From a phage: 64,000 nucleotides of DNA. Location: NCBI GenBank assembly GCA_024975835.1, contig GCA_024975835.1_4840.1. The stretch is one strand, 5' to 3'. Position 1 is the first letter of the stretch. Each line of letters starts with the position of its first letter. Below, in pieces: positions 9,945-46,886 of this stretch. The position numbers were made by a program, and so were the translations under genes. The notes beneath the pieces were generated by a model that saw only the letters and a list, made by a program, of their open reading frames with translations, was not told the DNA's origin and made no database searches.

Positions 9945-10013
9945 TTCCGGTTCCTCTTAATAAACGAAGGGAAGTATATACTCCCCCTTCTTCAATAACC
10001 GCTGAATCTTTAT

Positions 10014-10343
10014 TCAGAGATAAGATTTACCGAGTTCGGTCAGGCGATAGAACGTCACCTCAGTGTTCGGCCAGTTCACGTAAGAACCGTCATGAACCAT
10101 TGAGCCAGCTGGTTCGATCAACCCCTTGGCGAGCAGGGAAGCCCCAGTGCGGGGGTTGCCTTTGACGGAGGTGAAACCACCAGCGTTCGGGCATACCTGG
10201 AACGTCCAGACGGTGTTGCCCTTGTCATTGGTCCAGGATTTGGGATGAAAGTACCATTCACCATAACGGTAATGACCTTTCTCAAAGTTCAACATTCCTA
10301 AAAGGACGCAGAGTTGATGTCCTGTGATGCGCGGCTTTTTCAT
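10014..10343 (-). CDS. hypothetical protein
   Basis: Start moved to internal Met (MKKPRIT) that overlaps the upstream stop by 4 nt; track lists 10014..10394. Confidence 0.4.
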   Translation of the reverse strand: MKKPRITGHQLCVLLGMLNFEKGHYRYGEWYFHPKSWTNDKGNTVWTFQVCPNAGGFTSVKGNPRTGASLLAKGLIEPAGSMVHDGSYVNWPNTEVTFYRLTELGKSYL

Positions 10344-10657
10344 GACAATACTCCTTTCAGAGCTAAAACGGAAAGCACACCAATAATCAACCATGTCGGG
10401 ATAATTGGCTTGCAGTTCATGTGGGTTTCTCCACCTTCGATGTTCGGGCTTCCTTGTATAAGAACGTGTTCACAGGAAGCTCTGAACGTCATTACACAGC
10501 CCATCAACACAATTGGCCTGATATAATAACCCGTTTTAGTTTGCTTCACGATACATGGAGAGGAGAAGCGCAGATATGGATCCCCTTTCCGGTAGCCTGT
10601 GATTGTGACCTTCTGCACTTCAGAAGGCACTTTTTGGCCAGGAAAATAAATTTTCAT
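10340..10657 (-). CDS. hypothetical protein with C-terminal transmembrane helix
   Basis: 105-aa ORF; hydrophobic C-terminus. Confidence 0.4.
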
Positions 10658-11214
10658 ATTTCAATCCCCAGATTGGTGTATAACAACTCAGACAGGGTTA
10701 CAGGACGCTTGAATTGTTCCCAGCTGCAGTTCAGGTATTCGCGCTCTTCACGCATTTCACCGTGAAGATGGCCATGGATATTATACACCCAGCGGTCTAA
10801 TTGATAAGGAACGTGAGTGGTCAGCACACGACCAACCGGAGTATCACGCTCATACATCGCACCAAAGGAGCTAATCCATCCCTCTTGATACAGCTGCATC
10901 AACATCTTGAATTTGTCATGGTTGCCTTGCGCCACCCTGATGATAAAGTTCGGTCGCCAGTCATCAGGGACGGGGCGGCGCTTGAACTCATCAATATTCC
11001 GCTTGGCACCCTCGCGCATCAGGCGAATGAACCCCTCAGCCCCGATGAAGCAGATGTCCCCAGCCAGTTCAAGGACGTCTCGGGACTTCAGCCCCTGAAA
11101 GATACTGTCGATAACTGCAGCATCATGTGCCTCTTGGGTATCGAACCCACGGGGCTTGAAGATCTTCTTGTGTCCGAGGTGAGTGTCGCCCAGATACTTT
11201 ACAATTCCTGCCAT
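10654..11214 (-). CDS. metallophosphoesterase (calcineurin-like phosphatase)
   Basis: GDTHLG, GNHD and GHLH motifs; start set at MAGIV (ATG overlaps upstream stop as TAATG). Confidence 0.7.
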
Positions 11215-11642
11215 TATGGTCTCCTCAACCATTCTAAAATCGGTACGTTCACAAACCCTTTATGCCAGCGATGGGGTTTATGGCCTCTGTTGTGTTCGAG
11301 CAAACACGTATCCGGTGGGACACTGAAGTGGATGCCTTCGATGTCGTAGTAATGCCCATCAATCAGAGTATACACATGACCTTCGGTCTGACTGTAATGG
11401 ATCTCTGCTTGGGGATACACGTGCTTCAGAAGTAGAGCAACCTGGTAACACTTCCCGTTCTTCCCCACGTACTCGACATCCACCTGTTGTGGAAACACAT
11501 CTTTGATAAGGTTTATCAATCTCGTGATGTCATTTACGACAACCGAACGTTTCATATCACCTCTCCCGAGGATTCGTTGGTGAACCAATGATACTCTATC
11601 CCGGATATAGAAAAGCCCCTCACGGGGCTTGATCGTCTTCAT
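11214..11642 (-). CDS. hypothetical protein
   Basis: 142-aa ORF in operon context. Confidence 0.45.
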
Positions 11643-11922
11643 CAGGGAATATACGCCATCGACCTATTCCATACCACTCACCGATAGAGTTCCATGTCCT
11701 TTCCCCAGGCCAGCCACCGACCGAGTAGTAATGCGCCACCAGCCGCCAGTAAGGAAGAGAGGCCGTGTTCACGCCGCCGTCGGCCTTTAGGCAGGCCAAG
11801 TACCAATTCGTGAGACTGAACGCCTGAAATAACGGATGAAGGAACATGAAGTACAGGTAGCCCAATATGGCTGTGAATACCCCAGCTGTTACGATCACAC
11901 CGATGACAGTGAATACAATCAT
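11620..11922 (-). CDS. hypothetical small membrane protein
   Basis: 100-aa ORF with a hydrophobic N-terminal helix. Confidence 0.4.
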   Translation of the reverse strand: MIVFTVIGVIVTAGVFTAILGYLYFMFLHPLFQAFSLTNWYLACLKADGGVNTASLPYWRLVAHYYSVGGWPGERTWNSIGEWYGIGRWRIFPDEDDQAP

Positions 11923-12551
11923 CCCACAACCTCCAGACCCATCAGATCTTCCATGGTCTTCTGAATACGCAGCCAGTCAAGCGCAGCGTCATAACGAGGG
12001 TCATGATAGACCATACCTTCCAGTTCCCACGCCTTGATACCAGCATACCGATCCTGCTGTCCAACACCCTTCAGCCAACTCACGATGTCGAAGGTGTGGT
12101 GGTAGTCCCAAGGCTCGTTGGAGTCCTGCTTACATGTCACCTCAATGATGTGCTGAGCCTTGCGCAGATCAAACAGGTTGCGATCACACCAGTCGACCGA
12201 GCGCGGGTCTACCCCAAGACGATGACAACCCTTGCGGATTTCATCGGCCAATTGGAAGATAGAGATGTCATCTTCCTTGGGGTACAGACTGACTGCGCGA
12301 GCCGCATCACACGGGTTACGTTTACCCGCCCCCAACCACCATTCTACCGTCCCAGCGTCCTTCACGCGACCAAGTTCGAGCTGCTCTTTGACATTCAGCT
12401 TAATGAACGTCGTGCGCTCCTCAACCAGCTGCTGAAGAGTATAACGCTTGGTCAAGTCAGCGATGGTATGTGCCCAAGACAGCATGACTGCATCATCCCA
12501 GCGCCCCAGGGTTTCGCTGTCGGCCACAGCCAAAAAATTTGATTTATACAT
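11919..12551 (-). CDS. DEDDh 3'-5' exonuclease (DexA-like)
   Basis: Exo I-like LAVADSETLG and Exo III-like YHDPRYDAALD motifs. Confidence 0.6.
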   Translation of the reverse strand: MYKSNFLAVADSETLGRWDDAVMLSWAHTIADLTKRYTLQQLVEERTTFIKLNVKEQLELGRVKDAGTVEWWLGAGKRNPCDAARAVSLYPKEDDISIFQLADEIRKGCHRLGVDPRSVDWCDRNLFDLRKAQHIIEVTCKQDSNEPWDYHHTFDIVSWLKGVGQQDRYAGIKAWELEGMVYHDPRYDAALDWLRIQKTMEDLMGLEVVG

Positions 12552-12795
12552 GTTTATTCTCCCAACACTTTATTTTGGCTTTTACTGTATAATAATTTTC
12601 ATCAATGAACTTTTTGTTGACGCGCTTAATTTCTATCTCTGGGCAAAGTAACCCTATAGTTTCCCTCAAAATCTGGCTCACCCTGGCCTGTGAAATACAA
12701 TAAATTTCTGATACTTCTTTCGAACTAGTTCCAGACATGACAAGTTTTAGAATATTGACCTTTTTATAAAATTCTTGATCAAACGCACATATCAT
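12544..12795 (-). CDS. small helix-turn-helix protein
   Basis: 83 aa; central segment resembles a sigma-region-4/LuxR-type HTH. Confidence 0.4.
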   Translation of the reverse strand: MICAFDQEFYKKVNILKLVMSGTSSKEVSEIYCISQARVSQILRETIGLLCPEIEIKRVNKKFIDENYYTVKAKIKCWENKHV

Positions 12796-12798
12796 TAT

Positions 12799-13637: not shown

Positions 13638-13687
13638 TTGATGTTACCAAACAAGAGGTCGAGGCGGTAATAATACCGCCTTTTTCT

Positions 13688-14098
13688 TCAATAGAGGTCT
13701 TCGGAAAAGAGTTCGCGGAAAGGGGTTGTCTTCAGGCGCACCTGATTGATCTGTCCAGCTTCACGGGCTACGATGCACGCCTCTTCACGAGTGAGGAAGT
13801 TGCCCTGGTTGTCGATGAATCCCTGTTCGCGGGTATGGGTGGATTTAATGACGCCTGCTTCTTTCAGGATCTTGAGCTGGCTGTTCATGAATCGGCTGTG
13901 GTGACGGTCGGCAACGACGATCACGTCACCATATTTGTTGGCGGCAGCGACCACACGGCGCTCCCAGGCACCTTCGGCAGGAAGTTCACGAGTGTACAAT
14001 GGAATCATCGTATCGCCGATGTCATCCCCTTTCACCTGTGAGAACAACTTGCCTTCAGTGCCCGTTGGGAGTTCACGAAAATATCCCAGTAATTTCAT
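13688..14098 (-). CDS. hypothetical protein
   Basis: 136-aa ORF; no confident motif. Confidence 0.45.
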   Translation of the reverse strand: MKLLGYFRELPTGTEGKLFSQVKGDDIGDTMIPLYTRELPAEGAWERRVVAAANKYGDVIVVADRHHSRFMNSQLKILKEAGVIKSTHTREQGFIDNQGNFLTREEACIVAREAGQINQVRLKTTPFRELFSEDLY

Positions 14099-14157
14099 AA
14101 TCTATTCAATCCAAATTTCAGGTTCATGGATGTCGACCATACCCACTGTCTGGTTCT

Positions 14158-14379
14158 TCAGATCGTGGAAACAGTCGCCGAGGAATTGTATTTGCCGTCG
14201 GTCAGGAACAGATGGCAACGTGATGCTGGATCAGATGCATTCACCAGCAGGCTCGGTGTGAACGTAGGCTCAATAACATTGTTGTTCCACGACCACATCG
14301 GACCTTGGGTTTCGCCCTTAATGTGATATAGATGAAGCATATCACACCTAGGACAATGAAAATACAAGGAATCATCCAT
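14158..14379 (-). CDS. hypothetical zinc-ribbon protein
   Basis: 73 aa with CPRC...C...H arrangement. Confidence 0.35.
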   Translation of the reverse strand: MDDSLYFHCPRCDMLHLYHIKGETQGPMWSWNNNVIEPTFTPSLLVNASDPASRCHLFLTDGKYNSSATVSTI

Positions 14380-14414
14380 AGACAGAAGTTTAGGGCTCAG
14401 AAGCTATGTTATGA

Positions 14415-14702
14415 TCAACCATCTACAGTGGCTTCAGGATCGTAGGGGCGCAGTTCACCAACCAGTTTCGGAAAGAGTGCAAGCCCGAACAGGTTGAAAG
14501 AACGCATAGTGCCGACCATTGCAACATCTTCCCCTTCCTCGATATCTTTCATGGCGCACATTGGGTAATATTCATCGACCTCTGGGTCTTCCGTCTCACC
14601 ATAGAGACCAAACGCTACCTCTTCTTTGATAAAGCGAGGAACCAAGAAATCAAATAGGATAATGATGAATACCACAGGTGCTGCAGAACGGAGATAGAAC
14701 AT
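14415..14702 (-). CDS. hypothetical protein
   Basis: 95-aa ORF with hydrophobic N-terminus. Confidence 0.4.
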   Translation of the reverse strand: MFYLRSAAPVVFIIILFDFLVPRFIKEEVAFGLYGETEDPEVDEYYPMCAMKDIEEGEDVAMVGTMRSFNLFGLALFPKLVGELRPYDPEATVDG

Positions 14703-14743
14703 AGCACAACCCTCCAGGTGAGGAGGGGCGAACCCCTCCGATG

Positions 14744-16075
14744 TTATAGGCCAAGAGCCTTTTCAAGGTCATCAAGGTCTTCAGTGTAAAGATCGATGTC
14801 CTCTTTCTTACTTAATTCCTTGTGCTGTGCTTCAAGGTTCTCAATCTGCTTGAGTAGGCGCTCACGGGCATCCAGAGTAATAGACGACAGAGGCATCTTG
14901 AACAACTCGTCAAGATCACCACCAAAGTCCGGGTAGTCCTGCATGAACAGAGACTTCAGCACGTCAATCTTTTGGCGGAGATCAACACGCGTCGCCCATT
15001 CAATGAACACCGCCCGGTCACCCAGCTTGCGGATCCTGTCTGCCATGTCCTTCAACAGATACTGGCGACGGTCTTCATACCGTGACAGGCGATAATTGAA
15101 GAACGGCAGCAGCATATCCCGCCAACCAGAATAACGATGAATGACACCGTCTTCATCCCATGCCGTCCAAACAGGCTTGTTGGCTGAATACAACTTGAAC
15201 ATCTGCTCAACCTGCTCGTCACTTAGCTTAGAGAGTTCGCCGCGCTTAAACACAACCGTGATATCCCAGCCGTCTTCGGTCGTGTCGTTGGCGTACTCGG
15301 TGAGGATACCAGCCTTGTACAGAGGCAGCAACACCTTGGTCTCATAGGTTTTGGCAAACCAACCCACTGGGACTTCGGTGATATGCAGGGTGGTGGCATT
15401 GACGCGACGGAAGATACCGCGACTGTATGCTCTTCCTTCCTCAGTATAGCCTGTCTCTCCTTTGAAGCCGTTCCAGTACGGTTTTAAGTCTTTCGGGTCT
15501 TCGCCACGGAGAAGCGCTCTCAGGGCATTCAGCACGGACTTAACGCAATGACACGGGGTGTCGGTGGAATATCCGGTGCCGATACCATTGATCCCATTCA
15601 CCAGGAACATGGGCAGGATGGGCAGAAAGAACTTCGGCTCTAGCCTTTCTTCACCAAGGTAGTTGTATTCCAAGATACCCTCATCCTCCTTGCGGAAGAT
15701 CTTGCGGATAACATCAGACACAGCCACCGAAATGTAACGTGCTGACGACGCGTCGCGCCCCATGATAGAACCAAACTGGCCATCGCGGTCAAAGTACGGG
15801 ATGTTGTTCGTGCCTGGGAACCCCTGAGCCATGTTCACGATAGTGCCGCTCATGTTCTCACCACCAGACTTGTAGTTGGTGCGAGCGGCGGCGAACATAC
15901 CAAGGCGGTCAACAATCTCCTCCTTGTTGTACTCAAGAGCAGCGAAAAGGATCTTGCGCTGGCTTGGCTTGAGGCTGTCAATCAGCTGAGGGATTTGACG
16001 GATGCTGTTGACCACAGAAAACTGCTTATGGTCAGTGTTGACAAAGTCCGTTACAGTAATGCTCTTAGCAACCAT
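14744..16075 (-). CDS. DNA topoisomerase II medium subunit (GyrA-like, T4 gp52-like)
   Basis: GyrA-type N-terminal region (LKPSQRKILFA, YxxxxTxVxxxxGxP pattern); start placed at MVAKS with GAGG 9 nt upstream. Confidence 0.8.
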   Translation of the reverse strand: MVAKSITVTDFVNTDHKQFSVVNSIRQIPQLIDSLKPSQRKILFAALEYNKEEIVDRLGMFAAARTNYKSGGENMSGTIVNMAQGFPGTNNIPYFDRDGQFGSIMGRDASSARYISVAVSDVIRKIFRKEDEGILEYNYLGEERLEPKFFLPILPMFLVNGINGIGTGYSTDTPCHCVKSVLNALRALLRGEDPKDLKPYWNGFKGETGYTEEGRAYSRGIFRRVNATTLHITEVPVGWFAKTYETKVLLPLYKAGILTEYANDTTEDGWDITVVFKRGELSKLSDEQVEQMFKLYSANKPVWTAWDEDGVIHRYSGWRDMLLPFFNYRLSRYEDRRQYLLKDMADRIRKLGDRAVFIEWATRVDLRQKIDVLKSLFMQDYPDFGGDLDELFKMPLSSITLDARERLLKQIENLEAQHKELSKKEDIDLYTEDLDDLEKALGL

Positions 16076-16076
16076 C

Positions 16077-17987
16077 TTATTCATCCTCAGTTTCAAACAG
16101 GCAAACATCGCTAAACCAGGTTTTACGGTAATCGGCAGCCTCATCACCGAAGCCATTCTTCAGTGACTGTTGGTAGCCATCGTCCAGCGTGACCGTCGTA
16201 GTATACGCATCTAGGTTGTTTAGAATACGTTTGAAGTCTTCAGTGCTGTTACCACCAAGACCTTTCAGATATTTCTTCTTCGTGATCTTCTTGGCATCAG
16301 GCGTCTTCAGGAACTCCTCATACTCGGCGTTGTTCATGAACTCATGCATCACCTTACCACACCACACACGCATGTAAGGGGTGCGCAGGAGCTTCAGCCT
16401 GCCCTGACGGACATACTCCGGCCAGTAGGTGCAATACAGGGTGATCAACAACCCACGGATGTGGATGCCGTCATCGTCCGCATCGGTAGCCACAACAGTC
16501 TGTGGGTAACGGGTGATATCAAGGGGCTGGCCTGGCACTGCGCCGCCATGGATCGTACACAGGTTCTTGAACTCTTCATTGTTCATCACCTTTGAGCGCG
16601 GGGCGTTCAGGCAGTTGATGAACTTACCACGAAGCGGGAACAACCCGATCTTCTTGGTGTCGCGGGCGTTCAGGATAGGATTGGAGGCACTATCACCCTC
16701 TGTCAGCAACAGGGAGCATCCGCTGCGGTCACCACGGGCGGTCGCCGGGTAATACTTCTCAATCTCACGATAATCCCGCTTGCTGATGTCCTTCTTGGCC
16801 TTTTCAAACTCAGCATCATCCTGCTCATTGCGCAGGGAAGCCAGTTCTTTGCTCAGACCAGCCGTAACGAACTCAAGCGCCTTGCGGATCAGTTTATCAC
16901 TGGGCTTGTACGACGTACCGAACTGGCTGACAGGAGTGGTCATGCGCTCCTTGGTCTGGCTGTCAAAGCGCGGGTTGTTGATGTCGGCAGCGATGAACAA
17001 GGACATGTGGTTCTTGATCATTGCTGGCTTCAGTTCGGTCTTGAACTTCTTCACCAGCTGGGGACGAATCGCTGCCACGATCTGGTCAGCAACATAATCA
17101 ACGTGAGGACCACCGATGTGGGTGGCAATAGAGTTCACGTATGATGCGTGCATGAACGTACCGGATGAAGGGGCTACAGCAACAGACCAATCCCCGGTTT
17201 CGTCAACAGCCGAACCAGCATGGAAGTAATCAACGAAGTGGCCAAAGCGGTCAATCCGGATTTGCTTCCCGTTGAGAACAATCTTCAGGCGCGGGTTACA
17301 CGCAGCCACTTCAAACGCGCGGCGATAGATCATCAGCAGGTTGTTCTGGTCAAGTCCTTTGACGCCCAGACGAGCATAGTCAGGGATCCAGGCGATGGAT
17401 GTGCCAGGACTGTTCACGTTGCTGATGACTGGGTTAGATTTCTTGCTCATGTTGTCTTCAAACGTCTGAGTATAAGACTTCTTGCCGTCATTAGTCGTGA
17501 CGCGGAACCATTTGGAGAACACGTTGACGAGGGACGCCCCTTCGCCATTCTGACCACCGGACTTCTGGTTGTTGTACTCTTCGTCTTCGTCGTTGAAGTT
17601 CGATCCCGCATATAGAGAGCCGAACAACATTTCAGGAAGCCACTCGTTGGTGACGCCATGCTTGACCACAGGGATACCCCCGTTGTCAGCAACGATGATT
17701 TGACCGTTCATCGGGGAAACTGTGACGGTGATTTCCGTCAGGGATTTGCCCTCAGGGGTCTTGCTGTGGTCAACACAGTTGGTGATGATTTCATCAAACT
17801 GTTTGATCAGTGCGGGGGAGTACTCAAAGTTGTCACGGAAGATGACTTTATCCTTAGTTGGGTCATACACCCACACCGTCCCCACAGACGAACGAATACT
17901 ACCCAGATGACGCTCTGGGCGGAGTAGGATATGCTCAACGTGAGTGAGCTTCTTGTACTTGCGTTCAATATCAATTTTGTTGGACAT
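16077..17987 (-). CDS. DNA topoisomerase II large subunit (GyrB-like ATPase, fused gp39/gp60 type)
   Basis: GHKL ATPase motifs (ITNCVDH, ADNGGIP) and TOPRIM-like region (LTEGDSA); 636 aa. Confidence 0.85.
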   Translation of the reverse strand: MSNKIDIERKYKKLTHVEHILLRPERHLGSIRSSVGTVWVYDPTKDKVIFRDNFEYSPALIKQFDEIITNCVDHSKTPEGKSLTEITVTVSPMNGQIIVADNGGIPVVKHGVTNEWLPEMLFGSLYAGSNFNDEDEEYNNQKSGGQNGEGASLVNVFSKWFRVTTNDGKKSYTQTFEDNMSKKSNPVISNVNSPGTSIAWIPDYARLGVKGLDQNNLLMIYRRAFEVAACNPRLKIVLNGKQIRIDRFGHFVDYFHAGSAVDETGDWSVAVAPSSGTFMHASYVNSIATHIGGPHVDYVADQIVAAIRPQLVKKFKTELKPAMIKNHMSLFIAADINNPRFDSQTKERMTTPVSQFGTSYKPSDKLIRKALEFVTAGLSKELASLRNEQDDAEFEKAKKDISKRDYREIEKYYPATARGDRSGCSLLLTEGDSASNPILNARDTKKIGLFPLRGKFINCLNAPRSKVMNNEEFKNLCTIHGGAVPGQPLDITRYPQTVVATDADDDGIHIRGLLITLYCTYWPEYVRQGRLKLLRTPYMRVWCGKVMHEFMNNAEYEEFLKTPDAKKITKKKYLKGLGGNSTEDFKRILNNLDAYTTTVTLDDGYQQSLKNGFGDEAADYRKTWFSDVCLFETEDE

Positions 17988-19893: not shown

Positions 19894-19960
19894 TTGGTGT
19901 ATCCTCAGTTAGGTTCCGCTCATGGGGAACGGGTCCATTATACACCAAATGCTGGAAATG

Positions 19961-19984
19961 AAAAAGAGGCCGGAGCCTCTTTTG
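19961..19984 (-). terminator. intrinsic terminator hairpin (bidirectional)
   Basis: AGAGGCCGGAGCCTCT stem-loop flanked by an A-run and a T-run. Confidence 0.6.
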
Positions 19985-26461: not shown

Positions 26462-26535
26462 AGTATAGAAATCCTATCAATGTCAAAGGGGAACATATTG
26501 GTTGAGTGGGTATAATACGGTGGGCGTCTTCAATT

Positions 26536-26563
26536 GAAAAAGCCCTCAGCTGAGGGCTTTGTT
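26536..26563 (-). terminator. intrinsic terminator (bidirectional hairpin)
   Basis: AGCCCTCAGCTGAGGGCT palindrome flanked by AAAAA and TTTGTT. Confidence 0.6.
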
Positions 26564-27772: not shown

Positions 27773-27812
27773 AAAAAGGGGATAGAGCAATAATACCCTA
27801 TCCCCTTTTATT
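27773..27812 (-). terminator. intrinsic terminator hairpin
   Basis: GGGGATAG / CTATCCCC stem with 12-nt loop, A-run and T-run flanks. Confidence 0.6.
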
Positions 27813-27821
27813 GAAGAACGA

Positions 27822-30751: not shown

Positions 30752-30797
30752 CAAAAAGAAAGGGGAACGGGCTAATATTAACCCATTCCCCTTTATT
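30752..30797 (-). terminator. intrinsic terminator hairpin
   Basis: GGGGAACGGG...CCCATTCCCC stem-loop flanked by A-rich and T-rich runs. Confidence 0.55.
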
Positions 30798-30819
30798 GAA
30801 GAACGCAATCCGCAGTCAG

Positions 30820-35179: not shown

Positions 35180-35197
35180 GGGGGAATTATATCCCCC
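35180..35197. other. GC-rich hairpin between polymerase gene and downstream gene
   Basis: GGGGGAATTATATCCCCC; T-tract only on the plus side. Confidence 0.4.
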
Positions 35198-35211
35198 TTT
35201 GGTTTATTGAA

Positions 35212-38863: not shown

Positions 38864-38869
38864 GTTCAA

Positions 38870-38894: not shown

Positions 38895-38905
38895 GTGTTT
38901 AGGGA

Positions 38906-39118
38906 ATGAATGTGGTAAACAAGAGATTGCTCGTCACCCAAGGCGGGGCGACGATAGTGCGCGGAAGGATCTATGAACAAACACAGCTGGGTGATCACAA
39001 GACGCGCCTGACTGTTAAGGCTCCAGATGGTGGTTGGCCGACAAAGGTAATTGTCCCTGACGGTCTCATAGAACGAGGGTCGGCGGTGTATAAAGGAGCA
39101 GAGTTCAAAATTTATTAA
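38906..39118 (+). CDS. hypothetical protein
   Basis: 70-aa ORF. Confidence 0.4.
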   Translation: MNVVNKRLLVTQGGATIVRGRIYEQTQLGDHKTRLTVKAPDGGWPTKVIVPDGLIERGSAVYKGAEFKIY

Positions 39119-39136
39119 AATATTTATTGAATAAAG

Positions 39137-39164
39137 TTTACTTCTTCAATAACTGGCGTATACT
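39137..39164 (+). promoter_or_regulatory. sigma70-like promoter candidate
   Basis: TTTACT, 16-nt spacer, TATACT; about 50 nt upstream of the 39214 start. Confidence 0.3.
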
Positions 39165-39213
39165 TCTAATTGTAGTACGAACAAACAACAATCTGAAGAG
39201 AAGGAAATACATC

Positions 39214-39771: not shown

Positions 39772-39789
39772 TGTGAAGAAATAAAGAAA

Positions 39790-39812
39790 GGGGCTTAACG
39801 CCCCTTTTCTTA
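39790..39812. terminator. bidirectional intrinsic terminator
   Basis: GGGGC-TTAAC-GCCCC hairpin between convergent genes, A-run before and T-run after. Confidence 0.65.
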
Positions 39813-40268
39813 TTCTTCCCAGAAGTCTTCGTCGTCCCCGACAGCAGCCAGTTCCGTGTCCAGTTCTTCATCGGTAAACGGTGGCAGCACCCCGTTCTGA
39901 ATCAGATAATCCATCTCATCATCTTCCAGCTGCAGGTCGGTGGCAATATACAGCGCTCCGCTGCCCTCTTCGTCCGTCTCGATACTGTACGAAGTGTATG
40001 GCACCCCATTCACTGTAATGATGATAGACGTTGGATCCTTGGGATCTACGTGCGCCTCGAACGGCACGCCATCAATCGGTGCGTCTTCCAGGAAGGTGGC
40101 AAGTGCTACGGCGGCGCGGACAACATCAGTGCCTTCAACGCCTGCATAGATCTCTTCCGCGCCTGTCTCTTCACGATCAAACAGCTCAATCGTGATACCG
40201 TCTTGAACACCAGTCCATACAGGGATGTCATTAGTGTATTCTGATTCAAACAATTTGGAGGTTGGCAT
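39810..40268 (-). CDS. hypothetical highly acidic protein
   Basis: 152 aa, Asp/Glu-rich throughout. Confidence 0.45.
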   Translation of the reverse strand: MPTSKLFESEYTNDIPVWTGVQDGITIELFDREETGAEEIYAGVEGTDVVRAAVALATFLEDAPIDGVPFEAHVDPKDPTSIIITVNGVPYTSYSIETDEEGSGALYIATDLQLEDDEMDYLIQNGVLPPFTDEELDTELAAVGDDEDFWEE

Positions 40269-40300
40269 GTTAGGTTCCTCAGTGGGTTAGCCATATGGGG

Positions 40301-40307
40301 TATTTAG
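40301..40307 (-). promoter_or_regulatory. late-promoter-like CTAAATA motif
   Basis: Minus-strand CCTAAATACCCCATATGG 33 nt upstream of the ATG at 40268. Confidence 0.35.
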
Positions 40308-40399
40308 GCTTCCCGCTTGGCGATGCCTGGTTTGTACAGGACGCCTCTCGGAATATTGGAGGAAGGTTTTCATAGATACCCCACACTGGTTGTATGGGG

Positions 40400-40406
40400 T
40401 ATTTAG
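40400..40406 (-). promoter_or_regulatory. second copy of CTAAATACCCC motif
   Basis: Direct repeat of the element at 40301, about 100 nt further upstream. Confidence 0.3.
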
Positions 40407-40412
40407 GATGGA

Positions 40413-41606
40413 TCAGGAAGGGGTGAAGTCGTTCACAGGAACTGTTTCAGGGATAGCCAGCTCAGGGCATGCTGCCTTCATTGGCTCAATGTACGGCTTA
40501 CTACCCACAATCCAGAACAGAGTGTTCTCATTGAGCAACTCTGGCTTGTTCTGCTGGATCCAGGTCATGACCTTGCCTTCATAGCGAGGATGCAACTCAA
40601 TATCGCCCCACTGATATTCCATCAGGTCATTATAACGAACCCAATTAGTGGTATGAAGATCCCAATGGTGTACCTCAAAGCGAGGAAGCACGACCTCTGG
40701 CTCTTCCTTCTGCCTGATACCACTTAGGAGGCCAGCCAGCGAAACGCTCTTAGAGGCATGCTGAAGCTCCTTCTTGCCGTGTACATAGTCTGGGTTGTCG
40801 TGATAGCGACGGGTAAAGTCGACAATGTGCGGCAGATTGGCATGTTTGCCGATGATGCGCAGGCGGCTCTCGATAAAGTCAAGGCGGTTAGGACCGATGC
40901 CGATTAGATACACACGCTTCAGATTAGGCTTCGGATGCATTGCCAGCCCGGTCAGGATGCTTGTGCAAGAGTTGCACGATCCGGCTGGGATGATCAGGTC
41001 AGTAATGTGATCAGGAATGTTGGCAACCTGCTCGCCACCCAACATATGGAACCCAGCAATGCGCTCAGGGGAGTGGGCTGTATGGTCGAGGGTGATACCA
41101 TACTCCAGATAATACGCCTTTGGATTCTGTTGTTCGATCAACTTCTTACAGCGCGGCTGGATGGTGCTGTTGTAACCCGAGCCGACGAAGTTGAACTCAC
41201 TACCAAACCAGGCTGACATTGCCACCATTTCATGGTTCATACAGGTGGTGGGTTTGGTCGCGCCGAGCACAGTAGTTGTCTTGCCGCCGAAGTGCCGAGA
41301 GACTGCTGTCGCCATAGGGGACTGCGGACTACCAACGACAGTACCATGGATGATGTCAGGGGAGCCTCCGGCCTTGAGGTGCTCAACCATCAACCAGATG
41401 GCCTGGCGGAGTTTGCTGCCATTGATGCCCTGCTTGGCGTTGGCATAGTTAGACAGCGGCGCAAAATAATCTTCACGCTTGAACCAGACCTGCTGGTTGG
41501 TTTCGGGATTGACGACAAGTTCGCACGGGGTGTGCTTGTAGAGATAGTCTTCCCAGTGAACCAGATTGCGGTCGAGGGAAAGGGTATCGAAAATGGTCTT
41601 GTTCAT
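40413..41606 (-). CDS. PLP-dependent enzyme (fold type II, ACC-deaminase / Trp-synthase-beta-like)
   Basis: NGSKLRQ lysine motif and Gly-rich loops typical of fold-type-II PLP enzymes; start at MNKTIFD with AGGAG upstream. Confidence 0.6.
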   Translation of the reverse strand: MNKTIFDTLSLDRNLVHWEDYLYKHTPCELVVNPETNQQVWFKREDYFAPLSNYANAKQGINGSKLRQAIWLMVEHLKAGGSPDIIHGTVVGSPQSPMATAVSRHFGGKTTTVLGATKPTTCMNHEMVAMSAWFGSEFNFVGSGYNSTIQPRCKKLIEQQNPKAYYLEYGITLDHTAHSPERIAGFHMLGGEQVANIPDHITDLIIPAGSCNSCTSILTGLAMHPKPNLKRVYLIGIGPNRLDFIESRLRIIGKHANLPHIVDFTRRYHDNPDYVHGKKELQHASKSVSLAGLLSGIRQKEEPEVVLPRFEVHHWDLHTTNWVRYNDLMEYQWGDIELHPRYEGKVMTWIQQNKPELLNENTLFWIVGSKPYIEPMKAACPELAIPETVPVNDFTPS

Positions 41607-41676
41607 TCTATTTTCTCCTGTAGACATTGGTTTATCATAGTGTATCTACAGGAGTATAGAAAAGGAGAATCTCGGC

Positions 41677-42336
41677 TTATTTCTTGAATAAACGAAGGAA
41701 CTTCATCATGTTTTCCATGAAAGTCGGCTTCTTGACCTTTTGTTTTACCGGAGCGCCCTGATCATTCAGAACACGACTGGCCGGAGGAGTAGGTGGTGTC
41801 GGTGCTTTCGTTTCACAGGCCGGAACGATGTTCACGTCATGATGAGAAGACTCAGCTGTAGTGTTAACAACATTGTTCTCCTGGACGACAGGCTTAACGA
41901 GATTCTTTTCATACTCGCGAGCAATCGCCTGGTACTTCCGATTCTCCGCGTCAAAGTCCATAGAAACGACTTTACGACGGCGGCGCGTCGCGCTCTCATC
42001 ACCATAGAAATCGTATCCGTTCTTGACCAGCCAGTGTACAGCTTGGACAAATGAATGGAAGATCATGAACGGCTGGCCATTACCCTCTTCAGCAGCGGTG
42101 ATGCCGGAGTAGCCCATGAGCACAACCTGACCCTTTACGTCGAGGTCAAAAGATGTACATTCACCGTGCTGGTTCAGATCACGCGGAGCCAGCTGGGAAT
42201 CACGATGGATATAATTCGGCGACAAAAACTCATTCAGAGTTCGTTTGTTGCCTTTGTATTCAAACAGGCGAATACAGATGGGAGTCGTCAGTTCATGCCA
42301 TTCGGCATCGTTGACCCAGATAGAAACATTACGCAT
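41677..42336 (-). CDS. hypothetical protein
   Basis: 219-aa ORF; Pro/Thr-rich basic C-terminal tail. Confidence 0.45.
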   Translation of the reverse strand: MRNVSIWVNDAEWHELTTPICIRLFEYKGNKRTLNEFLSPNYIHRDSQLAPRDLNQHGECTSFDLDVKGQVVLMGYSGITAAEEGNGQPFMIFHSFVQAVHWLVKNGYDFYGDESATRRRRKVVSMDFDAENRKYQAIAREYEKNLVKPVVQENNVVNTTAESSHHDVNIVPACETKAPTPPTPPASRVLNDQGAPVKQKVKKPTFMENMMKFLRLFKK

Positions 42337-42428
42337 CGGTGTATCCTCAAATCAATGGATAGGGGTTTAACGGTTAAATTTTAAACCATTCTATCTCATT
42401 GAACAAATACAGAATGGGAAGGATGGAC

Positions 42429-42456
42429 AAAAGAAAGCCGGATAAGGATATCCGGC
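42429..42456 (-). terminator. intrinsic terminator downstream of tRNA cluster
   Basis: GCCGGATA-AGG-TATCCGGC hairpin followed on the minus strand by TTTCTTTT. Confidence 0.6.
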
Positions 42457-42675
42457 TATACCACATCGATGGGATGGGTTGAAAAGACTACACGCTTGCA
42501 CTGGTACTGCCTTATGGGAGAGCGCGTCAGGAGTCGAACCTGAAGTCGTCGACGTAGAGAAAGCTATTTGCATTTCACTATCCTCGCCGCGATTTTCTTA
42601 ACTTCCTAAACACCCCGATTACGAGAGAGTCGACATGCACATCTTCTAACTCTTCAGGAAGTCACGCCCGTAATT

Positions 42676-42764
42676 TGGCGGAAGGTGAAGGATTCGAACC
42701 TTCGGGGGCTAAAAGCCCCACTCGATTAGCAATCGAGTCCCTTAAACCTCTCGGGCAACCTTCC
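42676..42764 (-). tRNA. tRNA-Ser (anticodon GCT)
   Basis: Folded by hand: 7-bp acceptor GGAAGGT/ACCTTCC, anticodon stem CTCGA/TCGAG with loop TTGCTAA, long variable arm, T-loop GGTTCGAATCC, encoded CCA. Confidence 0.8.
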
Positions 42765-42984
42765 AATTTGGACGGGCTTCGCACCCGATTGAGCATTTGA
42801 TCTACCGTAGCCCAACTCCCCGCGCTTCTCAGCGCCGATTGGTTAACTGGCGACCAGTGCCTTCTGGTTCGATCTCCTGGAACTTTACAGGCTTTGCGCC
42901 AGACCATTTCTGGAAGTTGGGGCATCGTTTCCGATGTGGAGTCACCCCATTTTATACACAGCTGGCTGCAACGCTTACTGTGTT

Positions 42985-43068
42985 TGGTGTGAGTGGATGG
43001 ATTCGAACCACCGCGCTGTTACGGGGAGATTTACAGTCTCCTGCATTCGACCGCTCTGCCACACTCAC
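42985..43068 (-). tRNA. tRNA-Tyr (anticodon GTA)
   Basis: Acceptor GTGAGTG/CACTCAC, anticodon loop CTGTAAA, long variable arm, T-loop TTCGAAT, encoded CCA. Confidence 0.8.
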
Positions 43069-43325
43069 ATTTGGTCTGCCGCTGCGTGCTGGGCCACGCT
43101 CGAGGACATCGGCCATCCTTCCTCAGCTAATCCACGCAGCGGTAGATTTGTATCAGAGTGTCCGGTGTAGCAACCCGTGAGGTGCGCACTACTGTAGCCT
43201 CTACACTCTGAATTTGGTGGGTGTTACTATCGTCGTCTTCGGATTCCGTTCGGCTATTGGACAGAGGCTTGGAGCTTGTCGGTCGCGTACTTTATGCCTA
43301 TTCACTTTCGTTCACACCCATTGTC

Positions 43326-43401
43326 TGGCGACGATGGCAGGACTTGAACCTGCGACATATGGATTAACAGTCCACCGTTCTACCGACTGAACTACATCGT
43401 C
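43326..43401 (-). tRNA. tRNA-Asn (anticodon GTT)
   Basis: 76 nt; acceptor GACGATG/CATCGTC, D-stem GTTC/GAAC, anticodon loop CTGTTAA, T-arm GCAGGTTCAAGTCCTGC, encoded CCA. Confidence 0.85.
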
Positions 43402-43562
43402 TTGCAAATCACTATACCATATAAAGTTTATTGAACAAACATTTATTTTACAACAAACTGTATTGGCGGGGTCTGAGGCTTTTCACCTCACCTGCTGGGT
43501 TTGGCCGCCCAGCCGTTCTCTATGAGGATTCACTGTCCGGACAGCTATCCATTAAACTATCG

Positions 43563-43639
43563 CCCCTCAATATGGTGATCCTGATTGGGTTTGAACCAAT
43601 GACCAATGAATTATGAGTTCACTGCTCTAACCGACTGAG
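43563..43639 (-). tRNA. tRNA-Met (anticodon CAT; Met or Ile2 not distinguishable)
   Basis: 77 nt; acceptor GGTCCTG/CAGGATC, D-arm GCTCAGTCGGTTAGAGC, anticodon loop CTCATAA, T-loop GGTTCAAACCC, encoded CCA. Confidence 0.8.
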
Positions 43640-45033
43640 CTACAGGACCAAATTATTGTGTGACCAACCAAGGACTGTCAACCCTTTATCCCGTTTGTGC
43701 ATGATCAGTTCATACAGGCCTCTTTGTGCTGCCTCACGGCATGCGCTTCTGTTGGTCATTGGCTTACACTGTGGCCTCACAACAGGCGTTTATTTTTCCA
43801 GGGCTTTCCACTTACAAGTCTTAACCAGACCGGGATACGGGCTTGTAAGATCGGGTTGGACACAACTTTGAGGACACTGACGACGTATACGAGTCACCCA
43901 TAACAGATATTCGGATGCCAGTGTCCTCAAAGTTGCAACCAATGTCGCAACTCGCAGCTTCCATACAGAAGCAACTTGTCCTCTAACGCTCGGACCAAAC
44001 GAGGCTGGCTGGTTGATTCAGAGCCGCTGGTTGCTCCAGCAAGCATGGGTTGATAGCCCGGCAACATAGAATCACCCAAAGATGAAGAACATTCATGACT
44101 CACATCACACCACGAATGGCCTGAAAGAGAATCGAACTCTTTAAATGCTCTTCATTTTGTGAACTTGAGAATACTACGCCTGTCTCGGGTTTCCCCTTAG
44201 TTCGGCCTCCCAGTCCTCGCCGCGCCGGGTAGCTAACCCTGATGGCTCGTCTGCTACTGAGTTCTTCTTGGTGCCCACCAGTGTCCGGAATGTGTAGGCA
44301 TCGCAATCTGCAAGGCATGGTCTATTTCACCCAATGCTCTCTCAAGTTCACAAATCGAAGTGCCCTGACTCAACAGTATGGCCCAATATGCTGTTATCGT
44401 CCACCGGATTGGCCGCCCAATTTGTAGATCAACCTTTGGGTTTAAGATAAATTGTCAAGGCACTTCGATTTGTGTGCCCTTCACCTGCCAGGGATCAGGG
44501 CTGATGGCAAGACTTCGCTCACATCTTTCAAGATACTCGTGAGAATATCCTCAAAGATGTGGAGCCGTTTTAGGGAGTCGAACCCAAATGCTTGGCCAGC
44601 GCTGACCTTACATCCCATCTGACTTAGGCAACCCACCTCTGCTTACTCAGGAGCTTATCCCCTTTGGACAGTCAGATATAACGGCATTGTCGACGGGAGC
44701 TTATTAATCACACCCTCCCGTCTATTTTAGTGCGCCGAATTTGGTGATGAGGAATCGGAAGACCTCACTGACTTATAGGCTGTTACGCCGCCATCAGAAC
44801 TTCGGAATCATTAGCAGTTATTTGCTTGGTCAGTTTCTAAAAACCCGCAAAGTCACTCACAACGAAAACGAAAACCTGTTTGAGCACAAGACGCCATGTC
44901 CTGGGTTCACATCGAAGTGTTTGTCTAATGCCCAAACAGCTTTTCGTTCAGTGGGTTAACTATACTTTGTAACCCGTTATTGACAAAACCTTAAATTAAG
45001 TTGCGGTGTACTCAAGACCACCGCACTATTAAT

Positions 45034-45348
45034 CTACTTCAGCCAGCCCATGACTGCTTTGATGGTGTTGTCTGAATTAACTTCCACAGACTCAACCCAA
45101 ACAGCCTGACACGAGGCCGAGAAATTATACAGGGCATCGTAGTTCTCAAACTTCTTGTCCACCAGAGCGATGGCACGCTTCCGTCCTGAGATTTCTACCT
45201 TGGTTGAGTCTTCAGATTTCACCAGAGTGCATGAAACCCCATCCCAACCCAGTTGCTTCTGTAAATTCTCTAAATTGATCATAACTACCTCTTTGTCGAT
45301 ATTTGTTGGACATTTCCATTCGCGGACTATGTCAACACCCACCAACAT
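45034..45348 (-). CDS. hypothetical protein
   Basis: 104-aa ORF at the edge of the ORF-poor region. Confidence 0.35.
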   Translation of the reverse strand: MLVGVDIVREWKCPTNIDKEVVMINLENLQKQLGWDGVSCTLVKSEDSTKVEISGRKRAIALVDKKFENYDALYNFSASCQAVWVESVEVNSDNTIKAVMGWLK

Positions 45349-45998
45349 TTTGCCGGAACTTACGCATCCGGCCTCGCCTGTTGGTGCTCCTTCGAATCCG
45401 GGAAGATCAGTAGGAACTATGAATCAAGTTAATTCGACCAACAGGAACCTTGTTGCCCTTTGACGCAACATTATGAACCCTCTATGGAAGACTCATAATG
45501 TTGTCGGCGTGATGGAGATTAGCGCCCCCGACCTCCCCTTGTGTTGGTGTCGACTTGCCAACGGGGTGCTCTCTATTTCTGAGCTAATCACGCTGCAACA
45601 GGGAGTTTCGTTCTCCGACGGTCAAGTGCGTCCACTGACACCATGCAAGGTGGATATTGACTTATGAAGCCGGAGTCCTCGTCCTAGGACTGTGCTTGGC
45701 CTCAGCCTTTACACCGCTGGTCGCCCGACTCTTTACACCATAAAATTTACTATACTACAGCCAAGCTAATTTGAAAAGTCCTCTCCTCTTTGTGCTACAC
45801 TGCCCACAGCAGTGCGGACGAACCTTCACACAAAACCGGATGCGCCGAAGTGGGCGACTGTTTACCGGACTGATCGGGTAGACCCAGGAGAGAGCAGGTA
45901 ATCCCGATCAGGAGGATGAGGAGTAACATCATGTAAAACATAGTGTTCCCTCCCTTCCATGCAACTAACTTTACTGCAATTATTTATTGAATAAAGCG

Positions 45999-46568
45999 TT
46001 ATTTTAACACTTCTAACTTCACAATACGACGCAGAAGGTAAACATATTCGCCAGCAGCTTCATGCGTCATATAATGGGTAGAAGGTGTGGAATGAGTGTT
46101 CTGGGTTTCTTTTAATCCAACGCGTTCAGCCCAACCATTAATAGAGTTCCCATAGAAACCGATAATCGCGCCAAAATAAATACGCCCGCTTTCTGGCTCT
46201 AAAACGTAGTTGACAGTGAAGCAAATGTCAGAACGAATAGACTCCAGTTTCATACCAACACGACCTTCAGAGAATTCGTTACGAACATATAAATGACGGA
46301 AGCGATCGCGCCGTGCTTGTGATGATTCTTCCAATTCTTGTCGAAGTGAAGAAGTTATGTCAATATTAAATGAAAATGTTGGATTTCGTAAATCAGAACG
46401 GGCCAACTCTAACGCAGATTCAATAACGCGACGGAAATTGATACTTTTACCTGTCAGGCGTTTCACTTCATCGGTGATTTTTTCAAAAGGGATTTTCGTG
46501 GCGCGTTCCCCTTCGTATTTTGCTAACAAAGGAACAATGTGTTTCATGATTGCTGTGTTAATGTGCAT
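45999..46568 (-). CDS. hypothetical protein
   Basis: 189-aa ORF flanked by AT-rich intergenic DNA. Confidence 0.45.
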   Translation of the reverse strand: MHINTAIMKHIVPLLAKYEGERATKIPFEKITDEVKRLTGKSINFRRVIESALELARSDLRNPTFSFNIDITSSLRQELEESSQARRDRFRHLYVRNEFSEGRVGMKLESIRSDICFTVNYVLEPESGRIYFGAIIGFYGNSINGWAERVGLKETQNTHSTPSTHYMTHEAAGEYVYLLRRIVKLEVLK

Positions 46569-46886
46569 TCCGGAGCCTCACTGGATTGATTAAATGTCTC
46601 CGTTATTATATTGGGAGTATGTTTATTGAATATAAACACAGGAATGACCAATAAAATAATGACAGTGATTATTAATAGGTAAAAACTACTTTTCTACAAC
46701 ATCAAGAAACTGTATCCTAACGCAGTGCCCTTCGAGTTGTGAGTGTTAACGAACAACGAGAAGCAGCCTCCATGGCTGTGGAATGGTGCTGCCCGCATAG
46801 GGCGGTGTTACGAGCGAGGGCGTTAGCCCCCTCGCGAGTTATATTCGAATAAATTAAACGCGCGCGAGCGTTTTGATTCCCGTTGG

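Follow-up and report, generated by a model that had tools for sequence, protein, structure and literature searches.

Does the short sequence TTTATTGAATAAA, which recurs between genes in a 64,000-nucleotide stretch of phage DNA (the window), belong to a promoter, or is it an operator for a phage regulator, the two readings which a preliminary description had offered? The window derives from a ViI-like (Ackermannviridae) phage to which Enterobacter phage fGh-Ecl02 is 96% identical, and most of its genes are directed to the minus strand. The recurring TTTATTGAATAAA corresponds, seen from the other strand, to the upstream half of TTCAAT-N14-TATAAT; the conserved unit in minus-strand reading is TTCAAT(aa)-N14-TAtaAT, and the functional strand is that of TTCAAT(AA), opposite to the one on which the element had been framed.

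The motif of the Ackermannviridae, or 'Viunalikevirus', is attributed to Adriaenssens et al. 2012, Arch Virol 157:2035. Regulatory motifs reported for the family are 'TTCAAT[N14]TATAAT and CTAAATAcCcc' (PMC7283392); the element is thus already published as a hallmark motif, and its appearance here is a re-discovery, not a new element. Hexamers, 14-bp spacing and phage family of the motif in Enterobacter phage EspM4VN (PMC7283392) all match, with no essential difference from the published form, of which the preliminary description had caught no more than the upstream half; it had read that half on the complementary strand and stretched it into a palindrome. An alignment pairs window positions 46605-46630 with a published EspM4VN site, 61226-61251, as orthologs; both hexamers are kept and the spacer differs. 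The accessible literature on the motif gives sequence and positions only, without a mechanism, and mentions neither an overlap with terminators nor extra box copies in sigma70-like promoters. The element is real, functional-looking and known already.

All copies listed previously exist within a few bases, except that the one placed at 46608 was 14 nt off; 46605-46610 is the partner -10 hexamer, and the copy itself is TTTATTGAATATA at 46622-46634. The others are TTCTTCAATAA on the plus strand at 9988-9998 and at 39142-39152 (given earlier as 39141), TTTATTGAAGAAC at 27807-27819 and 30792-30804, TTTATTGAATCAA at 35203-35215, TTTATTGAACAAA at 43427-43439, and exact copies of the 13-mer at 39123-39135 and 45983-45995. 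The full near-palindrome ATTTATTGAATAAAG is indeed found at 39122 and 45982, and the 10-bp palindrome AGTATATACT at 9973-9982 beside a copy. Related copies which had been missed are located at 13683-13695, 26533-26538, 42398-42403, 19957-19962 and 44979-44984. With up to 2 mismatches allowed, the 13-mer gave 16 strand-hits in the window versus 1.7 expected, a number reached in 0 of 100 shuffles. Intergenic DNA (54 segments, 6,948 bp of the window) contained TTCAATAA or its complement 9 times against 0.32 expected, and none of 500 dinucleotide shuffles had more than 3; its intergenic frequency thus lies far above chance, the point on which the preliminary description would have been refuted. 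Among the 9-10-mers of fGh-Ecl02, the closest complete genome, only the late-promoter motif is more over-represented than this one, and 24 of the 31 copies of TTCAATAA are intergenic.

When TTCAAT followed by a hexamer matching TATAAT at 5 or more of 6 positions was counted, the spacing peaked sharply at N14: fGh-Ecl02 has 13 such sites, where 0.20 were expected and no more than 2 arose in any of 60 simulations; by the same criterion, the window has 4 and LIMEstone1 has 6 N14 sites. The 14 bp from TTCAAT equal 12 bp counted from TTCAATAA, and the hexamer is a sigma70-type -10. All genuinely intergenic sites with N13-15 spacing (18/18) are co-oriented with the downstream gene; these genes include rIIA, nrdA, gp32, thymidylate kinase, gp55, an HU-like protein, tRNA-Asn and small ORFs. 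The box stands upstream of pre-replicative genes (replication, nucleotide-metabolism, tRNA and small early genes) and never of structural genes; the tailspike and structural genes are preceded by the late motif CTAAATACCCC instead. Several copies are off-spacing from a -10 hexamer: some are N6-8 from it, taking TTCAATAA as the reference, and others precede a predicted start by about 42 to 56 nt. At orthologous sites the hexamers are kept and the spacers drift, which is modest evidence of constraint, since the available relatives are close (86-99% DNA polymerase identity). Spacing, co-orientation, gene classes, orthologous conservation and the published motif together lend good support to the promoter alternative: the element is very probably the upstream box of a conserved pre-replicative (early/middle) Ackermannviridae promoter, TTCAAT(aa)-N14-TAtaAT, located mostly on the minus strand here. 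Promoter activity and timing are to be read as inferred, because the searchable literature yielded neither transcript 5' ends nor in vitro transcription for any Ackermannviridae phage.

Two sites on the minus strand have the canonical form TTCAAT-N14-TATAAT. At 46605..46630 (TTCAAT 46625-46630, TATAAT 46605-46610), the ATG of a 189-aa ORF (45999-46568) follows 36 nt downstream. The site at 35186..35211 comes directly after the stop codon of the DNA polymerase (ggtTGAttcaat), 36 nt upstream of ORF 34808-35149, and its TATAAT is in the loop of a GGGGG/CCCCC hairpin (35179-35198); among relatives keeping this junction (16/19 loci), hexamers and GC stem are invariant with a variable spacer, and the site is conserved in LIMEstone1 as well. 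The sites that follow are also on the minus strand. TTCAAT-N14-TAATAT at 30775..30800, upstream of ORF 30547-30738 and with an ortholog in LIMEstone1 at 148126, has its spacer, -10 hexamer and start region inside a 16-bp intrinsic terminator hairpin (30759-30794; MFE -29.2 kcal/mol, z -6.3) followed by a U-run. TTCAAT-N14-TATTAT at 27790..27815 overlaps the intrinsic terminator hairpin 27774-27809 (MFE -29.2, z -5.7), which is followed by TTTTT; its LIMEstone1 ortholog, whose stem has a single difference (G-U versus G-C), is annotated as a terminator with a 'minus_10_signal putative promoter' inside it. TTCAAT-N15-TATTAT at 26512..26538, directly after the terminator hairpin 26539-26560, is 50 nt upstream of rIIA (23705-26461), and its LIMEstone1 counterpart keeps TTCAAT and TATnAT with a diverged spacer. 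The same holds for TTCAAT-N14-TAAAAT at 42378..42403, a site absent from the earlier list, upstream of a 219-aa ORF (41677-42336), with hexamers kept and spacer diverged in LIMEstone1 (131628).

At 43411..43435, the copy formerly given as 43424, TTCAAT-N13-TATAGT is found; 9 nt separate the end of its -10 hexamer from the 5' end of tRNA-Asn (43401). A weaker, off-spacing variant, TTCAAT-N12-TAAAGT, is present at 45968..45991 upstream of the small ORF 45795-45941, and on the plus strand this site shows the full ATTTATTGAATAAAG (45982-45996); the LIMEstone1 ortholog is GTCAATAA, in which the palindrome is lost. The variant TTCATT-N14-TATAAT at 19937..19962 follows a terminator, is 43 nt upstream of ORF 19393-19893 and is 96% conserved in LIMEstone1. 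Another variant, GTCAAT-N14-TATAGT at 44959..44984, is situated in a gene-poor region with no clear downstream ORF. A sub-threshold Rfam hit was noted downstream of the latter.

The association with terminator hairpins described previously holds for six loci (9967-9988, 13662-13681, 26539-26560, 27774-27809, 30759-30794 and 35179-35198). As intrinsic terminators of the gene before the site, these hairpins share sequence with the promoter: the spacer makes up the ascending arm, and the -10 hexamer is placed at or close to the loop, often within it. Transcription would then stop and restart within about 50 bp. That the motif is a mere A/T-rich flank of intrinsic (bidirectional) terminators without a function of its own is very improbable. 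AATAAA does pair with the U-tract and lengthens the terminator stem at 27806 and 30791, and on the plus strand the box is the T-rich hairpin tail at 9988 and 13684; against this, many copies have no hairpin (46630, 43435 and 42403 in the window; 72812 and 85016 in fGh-Ecl02), TTCAAT is outside the stem, and terminator composition does not account for a specific 6-8-mer that keeps a constant distance to TATAAT.

An operator for a dimeric phage or host regulator, TTATT-G/C-AATAA, acting independently of promoter recognition, would appear improbable too. In its favour, full 11-bp dyads exist at 39124-39134 and 45984-45994, a TT(A/C) prefix before TTCAATAA is over-represented, and phages of the family have an HU/TF1-like protein. 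Two copies, moreover, run against the direction of the genes. One is TTCTTCAATAA at 9988-9998 (+), flanked by minus-strand genes and adjoining the hairpin 9967-9988 with AGTATATACT at its apex; this locus (9967..9998) shows no fitting box-to-hexamer spacing on either strand and is 95% conserved in LIMEstone1. The other, TTTCTTCAATAGA at 13683-13695 (+), follows the hairpin 13662-13681 (minus-strand loop TATTAT) and fits neither spacing; no ortholog of 13662..13695 was found in LIMEstone1. Box copies in either orientation are also seen upstream of and within the spacer of sigma70-like, early-type promoters. 

The sigma70-like promoter TTTACT-N16-TATACT at 39137..39164 (+), of the T4 early type and upstream of ORF 39214-39771, has TTCTTCAATAA (39142-39152) in its spacer; the 18 relatives carrying it all have TTCAATAA, TTTAC and TATACT unchanged, with variable flanks, and by similarity to T4 its orthologous and paralogous LIMEstone1 copies bear the annotation of putative early or middle promoters. 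Upstream of its -35 hexamer, in AT-rich sequence, an inverted box copy, ATTTATTGAATAAAG at 39122..39136 (+), is centred about 42 nt before the predicted start. This promoter is presumably of the immediate-early type, and its box copies may be secondary binding sites or merely inherited sequence.

The operator alternative is not supported, because the symmetry is not conserved and a conserved small HTH regulator was not found near the copies; for the copies at 39122-39164 an operator role is conceivable. The small HTH proteins mentioned in the preliminary description come down to an 83-aa ORF with sub-threshold HTH hits which is absent from the closest relative. Most copies are without the TTTA prefix and without dyad symmetry, and orthologs in related phages keep TTCAAT/TTCAATAA with the palindrome broken; 39122..39136, for example, is TTTATTGAAAAAC in one clade. 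Dyad symmetry is therefore not the conserved property, contrary to the earlier emphasis on a near-palindrome. Strict gene orientation and a fixed N14 to TATAAT would not be expected of a symmetric operator. The position of the upstream copies counts against it as well, varying in paralogous promoters from about 42 to 56 nt before the predicted start; their orientation varies there too.

It is conceivable, if rather doubtful, that the sites are plain host-type early promoters, used by the sigma70 holoenzyme alone immediately after infection, in which case TTCAAT would be a degenerate -35 or UP-like element beside a strong -10. The -10 hexamers fit sigma70 excellently, an activator homolog was looked for and not found, and at 35211 an alternative reading TTGATT-N18-TATAAT can be made; the CBA120 authors found eight sigma70-consensus promoters, yet argued for many more early promoters (PMC3184105). 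The conserved hexamer, however, is 14 bp and not 16-18 bp from the -10 and matches TTGACA at 3/6 positions, the positions for a properly spaced -35 are not conserved, and the TGn extended -10 element is absent. Moreover, the genome has separate promoters with proper sigma70 spacing (TTTACT-N16-TATACT at 39137; TTGACA-N18-AATAAT at 43652-43681).

For the pre-replicative promoter with its own upstream box, the -10 hexamer would be read by the host sigma70 RNA polymerase. The box would be centred near -30, and since a spacing of 14 bp leaves too little room for a normal -35 contact, its most likely reader is a phage-encoded factor. Such a factor could act by sigma appropriation, as do MotA/AsiA of T4, in which case the promoters would be 'middle'. 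A homolog search and the literature (PMC3184105) showed no MotA or AsiA homolog, and no protein that binds the box came to light. Among the enzymes of hmU-derived thymidine hypermodification in the phage family are a thymine pyrophosphorylase homolog, annotated at the counterpart of window 31025-32263, and one with a 5-hmdU DNA kinase domain. TF1 of Bacillus phage SPO1 is an HU-family protein which binds hydroxymethyluracil DNA at early promoters. Like SPO1, the phage family encodes an HU-family protein (92 aa; Bac_DNA_binding, E 6e-30); its gene is outside the window, and no evidence ties it to the box.

With its AT-rich upstream region, the promoter at 39137-39164 matches the architecture of T4-type early promoters (strong sigma70; UP, -35, -10), which are without a TTCAATAA box, whereas here one is present in the spacer and a second copy upstream. 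In T4 middle promoters, a distance of 12 +/- 1 bp separates the MotA box, centred at -30, from the -10 hexamer (PMC2988021). The box sequence differs, being TTCAAT(aa) here and (a/t)(a/t)(a/t)TGCTTtA in T4, the modified base is thymine here and cytosine in T4, and in the T4-like gene order gp52 ... Arn.3 the slot of motA contains unrelated small ORFs. The arrangement is nevertheless alike: a phage-specific box near -30 replaces the -35, 12 bp from an excellent sigma70 -10; the same kinds of genes follow (rIIA, replication, nucleotide metabolism, tRNAs, gene 55), and the sites are often located after terminators.

The stretch at 35000-47000 of the window was 96% identical to Enterobacter phage fGh-Ecl02 (ON212266), the closest complete genome; with Shigella phage Ag3 and Enterobacter phage EspM4VN, it shared about 90% identity. 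The window phage and these three are Ackermannviridae, i.e., ViI-like or "Viunalikevirus" phages. Between about 2.2 and 46.6 kb, the minus strand encodes most genes, among them topoisomerase, rIIB, rIIA, DNA polymerase and four tRNAs; genes for baseplate and tailspike come next, on the plus strand.

The recurring element was confirmed and is highly non-random. All copies listed in the preliminary description were present within a few bases of their coordinates, except for the copy placed at 46608, which exists, but at 46622-46634; exact matches were obtained for both full 15-mers and for the palindrome of 10 bp at 9973-9982. With up to two mismatches, the 13-mer gave 16 strand-hits in the window (1.7 expected). 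TTCAATAA or its complement was found nine times in the 6.9 kb of intergenic DNA of the window, compared to an expectation of 0.32 and a maximum of 3 in 500 shuffles of that DNA. The complete genome of fGh-Ecl02 contained 31 copies of TTCAATAA (6.1 expected), 24 of them intergenic; among the 9-10-mers of that genome, it was the second most over-represented after CTAAATACCCC. Thus, the element exceeds the frequency expected from base composition, both between genes and genome-wide, and the reservation that it might not do so no longer applies. Hits at 41680 and 58623 are within coding sequence, have no -10 partner and are probably incidental.

Read in gene direction, the conserved unit, which is promoter-like, consists of TTCAAT(aa) and a TATAAT-like hexamer at a fixed distance. 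The spacing between the two showed one sharp peak at 14 bp (N14). Sites of this spacing with at least five of six matches to TATAAT numbered 13 in fGh-Ecl02, where 0.20 were expected, six in LIMEstone1 and four in the window. All 18 truly intergenic sites of fGh-Ecl02 with spacers of 13 to 15 bp (N13-15) were directed at the downstream gene, with about 25-80 nt between hexamer and start codon. Behind N13-15 sites are rIIA, nrdA, gp32, thymidylate kinase, gp55, an HU-like protein, a homing endonuclease, tRNA-Asn and many small ORFs; structural genes were found behind none of the 18. The consensus was ..tt.TTCAATaa..g.....ggg.TATaAT, and the aligned sites showed neither conservation at a properly spaced -35 position nor a TGn element. 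The fixed spacing, the orientation to the downstream gene and the kinds of genes served argue for the "promoter element" part of the original suggestion, and the promoter assignment of the TTCAAT-N14 sites is supported by strong sequence statistics.

Exact copies of TTCAAT-N14-TATAAT are located at 46605-46630, upstream of a 189-aa ORF, and at 35186-35211, upstream of ORF 34808-35149. One mismatch in the -10 hexamer is present at 30775-30800 (before ORF 30547-30738), 27790-27815 (before ORF 27254-27709, the start of which was taken from the fGh-Ecl02 annotation) and 42378-42403 (before a 219-aa ORF). Other spacers occur upstream of rIIA (N15, 26512-26538), upstream of tRNA-Asn (N13, 43411-43435, the hexamer ending 9 nt before the tRNA) and upstream of the small ORF 45795-45941 (N12 with TAAAGT, 45968-45991). 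A variant with TTCATT at 19937-19962 precedes ORF 19393-19893, and GTCAAT-N14-TATAGT at 44959-44984 has no clear downstream ORF. All these sites are on the minus strand. For annotation, the motif indicates likely pre-replicative promoters on the minus strand of the window, at least seven to ten of them, and it accounts for the modules of terminator and AT-rich box between genes.

Several observations were made in the vicinity of such sites. A near-consensus sigma70 promoter, TTGACA-N18-AATAAT, at 43652-43681 (minus strand) ends 2 nt before the first tRNA (43573-43649, minus strand); therefore, the tRNA cluster has promoters of both the host type and the TTCAAT type. This tRNA has a CAT anticodon and was assigned to Met by ARAGORN. 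The tRNA at the matching cluster end of fGh-Ecl02 (20813-20886) is annotated as tRNA-Ile, several related records list tRNA-Ile in the cluster, and the window tRNA may be a lysidine-modified Ile tRNA. A gene-poor stretch (43650-45800) adjoins the cluster. Just downstream of the 44959-44984 site, a sub-threshold Rfam match to tmRNA_permuted (22 bits, E 0.098) was obtained at 44783-44933 (minus strand), which may correspond to a small RNA or to the remains of a tRNA-like gene; above threshold, the Rfam scan yielded four tRNAs only. Outside the window, fGh-Ecl02 encodes an HU-family protein of 92 aa (85096-85374), which bears the annotation "transcription factor" and has TTCAAT-N13-TAAACT upstream, and a 672-aa protein (72906-74924) with TTCTTCAATAA-N12-TATATT upstream, which is called "putative DNA-directed RNA polymerase" in another record and had no Pfam match.

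The window element is the published Ackermannviridae regulatory motif TTCAAT[N14]TATAAT (PMC7283392), seen from the opposite strand; it is already known and therefore not novel. A listed instance, EspM4VN 61226-61251 (PMC7283392), aligns with 46605-46630 of the window when EspM4VN 61100-61400 is compared; the hexamers are identical and the spacers differ (AACACCTTCACCAA vs. AAACATACTCCCAA). Membership in the family and the partner late motif CTAAATAcCcc are both present in the window phage. The motif reportedly goes back to the "Viunalikevirus" genus proposal of Adriaenssens et al. in 2012 (Arch Virol 157:2035). Earlier papers on Ag3, CBA120 and LIMEstone1 did not give it. The CBA120 paper of 2011 states that identification of early and middle promoters was not possible and that homologs of MotA, AsiA, Alt and ModA are absent (PMC3184105). 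No transcript mapping for Ackermannviridae was found in the searchable literature. Finding the motif adds little, as it had been listed as a family signature before; of interest are the recognition of the box and the compact nesting of terminators and promoters.

The late-promoter-like motif CTAAATACCCC occurs in exact form at 40297-40307 and 40396-40406 (minus strand) and at 50752-50762 and 56997-57007 (plus strand), directly upstream of the tailspike and other structural genes, and with one mismatch at 54337-54347 (plus strand). The TTCAAT-N14 sites are cleanly set apart from these late promoters, and the two classes are complementary.

The remark that copies occur beside terminator hairpins is accounted for by terminators which overlap or adjoin the promoter-like sites. 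Judged from their sequences, the neighbouring hairpins, and not the motif itself, are intrinsic (rho-independent) terminators of the upstream gene. The hairpins 27774-27809 and 30759-30794 comprise 16 bp, each followed by a U-run, and both fold at -29.2 kcal/mol (z -5.7 and -6.3, respectively). At the sites 27790-27815 and 30775-30800, everything from the AATAAA after TTCAAT through the spacer and the -10 hexamer to the predicted start region is inside these hairpins. With respect to these two terminators and to terminator 26539-26560, which stops immediately before the TTCAAT of the rIIA site, the motif is positioned immediately outside or at the edge formed by the A-tract. As the -10 hexamer is at the hairpin apex in the two 16-bp cases, a new transcript would start in the descending arm and would thus exclude the terminator. 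At 35186-35211, TATAAT forms the loop of a GGGGG/CCCCC hairpin immediately 3' of the DNA polymerase stop codon. This junction was kept in 16 of 19 loci of relatives; the GC stem and the hexamers do not vary there, and a longer stem is present in one clade. The LIMEstone1 annotation contains a "minus_10_signal" inside the terminator orthologous to 27774-27809. In fGh-Ecl02, the -10 hexamer was at or in the apical loop in 13 of 19 intergenic sites, with z < -2 in seven; the arrangement is recurrent, not universal.

A different layout was found on the plus strand at 39137-39164, where TTTACT-N16-TATACT, a sigma70-like promoter, precedes ORF 39214-39771. Its spacer contains TTCTTCAATAA, where 6 bp separate the end of the box from the -10 hexamer; ATTTATTGAATAAAG is present in the AT-rich region upstream. 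The same combination of box and promoter is present in paralogous promoters elsewhere in the genome; in the LIMEstone1 annotation, such promoters are putative early or middle ones, by similarity to T4. The region 39095-39220 (plus strand), comprising the promoter and a leader of about 50 nt, is nearly invariant in 18 of 19 related loci. In these 18, which carry the promoter, TTTAC, TTCAATAA and TATACT are invariant and neighbouring bases vary. The first codons of the ORF behind it vary between phages (ATGGCA, ATGGGC, ATGACC, ATGAAA, ATGTCC), suggesting a conserved promoter cassette which drives exchangeable early genes.

The second possibility raised initially, an operator for a phage regulator, would rest on dyad symmetry. 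Full dyads are present only at 39124-39134 and 45984-45994 and are broken in orthologs; in one clade the copy upstream of the 39137-39164 promoter is TTTATTGAAAAAC, and therefore the palindrome is not the conserved feature. A palindromic operator of a dimeric regulator is not supported, since the symmetry is neither shared by the copies nor kept in orthologs. Two inverted copies (TTCTTCAATAA/G, plus strand), at 9988-9998 and 13684-13694, are opposite to the flanking genes, and both adjoin a hairpin with TATATA or TATTAT in the loop on the minus strand. Neither has acceptable hexamer spacing for either promoter class on either strand; the module at 9988 is 95% conserved in LIMEstone1. Concerning small HTH proteins, an 83-aa ORF at 12544-12795 (minus strand), between dexA and a Tk.4-like gene, had sub-threshold matches to Sigma70_r4, GerE and HTH (E ~0.005-0.008) and is absent from fGh-Ecl02. 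The N-terminal 100 aa (23374-23673, minus strand) of the rIIB homolog (22108-23673) matched HTH_23 (34.6 bits) and HTH_38 (33.7 bits) above threshold, and residues 66-87 possibly form a second HTH; it is unexpected for rIIB to carry a DNA-binding module.

The best reading of the N14 class, we infer, is that sigma70 polymerase would bind the -10 hexamer and a phage factor would read the box. The TTCAAT-N14 sites would then be promoters of the middle type, and the immediate-early class would be represented by the sigma70-like promoters. That sigma70 alone uses the TTCAAT-N14 promoters is a live alternative. TTCAAT is unlike a sigma70 -35 hexamer, being only 14 bp from the -10 hexamer and matching TTGACA at 3 of 6 positions, and, among the sites with the box, canonical geometry (TTGACA-like, 16-18 bp, TATAAT-like) was found only at 39137-39164. 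As for the phage factor, phmmer searches with T4 MotA and AsiA against every six-frame ORF of the window, of fGh-Ecl02 and of LIMEstone1 yielded no homologs (best E ~1-4; the control, Arn.3, scored 9e-14); a non-homologous analog may exist. When some 40 proteins of the window and the closest genome, including products of genes downstream of sigma70-like early-type promoters, were scanned against Pfam and PHROG, there was no candidate for MotA, AsiA, an anti-sigma factor or a conserved HTH protein. Searches of PDB sequences with the 189-aa, 219-aa and 166-aa proteins gave no match. The consensus sequences of IHF (WATCAANNNNTTR) and of sigma32, sigma28 and sigma24 promoters, compared by eye, did not fit.

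The 166-aa protein (19393-19893, minus strand; phrog_4164) is called "histone-like" or "histone family DNA-binding" in databases. Its matches with a phage name were all from Dickeya, Salmonella or Klebsiella phages, at identities down to 36%, and many matches were on contigs of 150-160 kb. The AlphaFold model was confident (pLDDT 85.7), with an alpha/beta fold, and no PDB entry was significantly similar in Foldseek (best E 5e-3, TM ≤ 0.43). As modelled, it has no DNA-binding fold; the label looks unsupported, as does a role as binder of the box.

A more specific proposal, which we regard as rather improbable, is that the TTCAATAA box is the site of an Ackermannviridae factor, non-homologous to MotA/AsiA, which redirects host sigma70 RNA polymerase. 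Such a factor would activate promoters with the box centred at -30 (N14 class). The sigma70-like promoters of the immediate-early class, which carry the box in the spacer, 6 bp nearer to the -10 hexamer, and once more upstream, would be occluded by it. If true, the early-to-middle switch on thymidine-hypermodified DNA would be driven by a single protein and a single box, and the nesting of -10 hexamers in terminator loops would link termination with re-initiation. What reads a -30 box on hypermodified thymidine, when MotA and AsiA are lacking, was a question raised by the CBA120 authors in 2011, with no answer found in the searchable literature. The sample for phylogenetic footprinting, LIMEstone1 and 19 IMG/VR relatives with DNA polymerase identities of 86-99%, was too close for a strong footprint.

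Comparison with T4 shows both differences and similarities. The T4 gene order gp52 ... Arn.3 (T4 159500-165500) is kept at 13688-16156 (minus strand) of the window, with an Arn.3 homolog at E 9e-14; in place of motA.1 and motA there are an unrelated ORF of 95 aa, a putative membrane protein according to the fGh-Ecl02 annotation, and a 73-aa DUF6527 ORF. The T4 MotA box, (a/t)(a/t)(a/t)TGCTTtA, is unlike ..tt.TTCAATaa of the window phage. In T4, this box is 12 ± 1 bp from the -10 hexamer, with its centre at -30 (PMC2988021). In the N14 class, TTCAATAA would span about -32 to -25, with its centre likewise at -30, and ends 12 bp before the hexamer; thus, the sites have the exact geometry of T4 middle promoters, and they serve the same gene classes as those of T4 middle genes.
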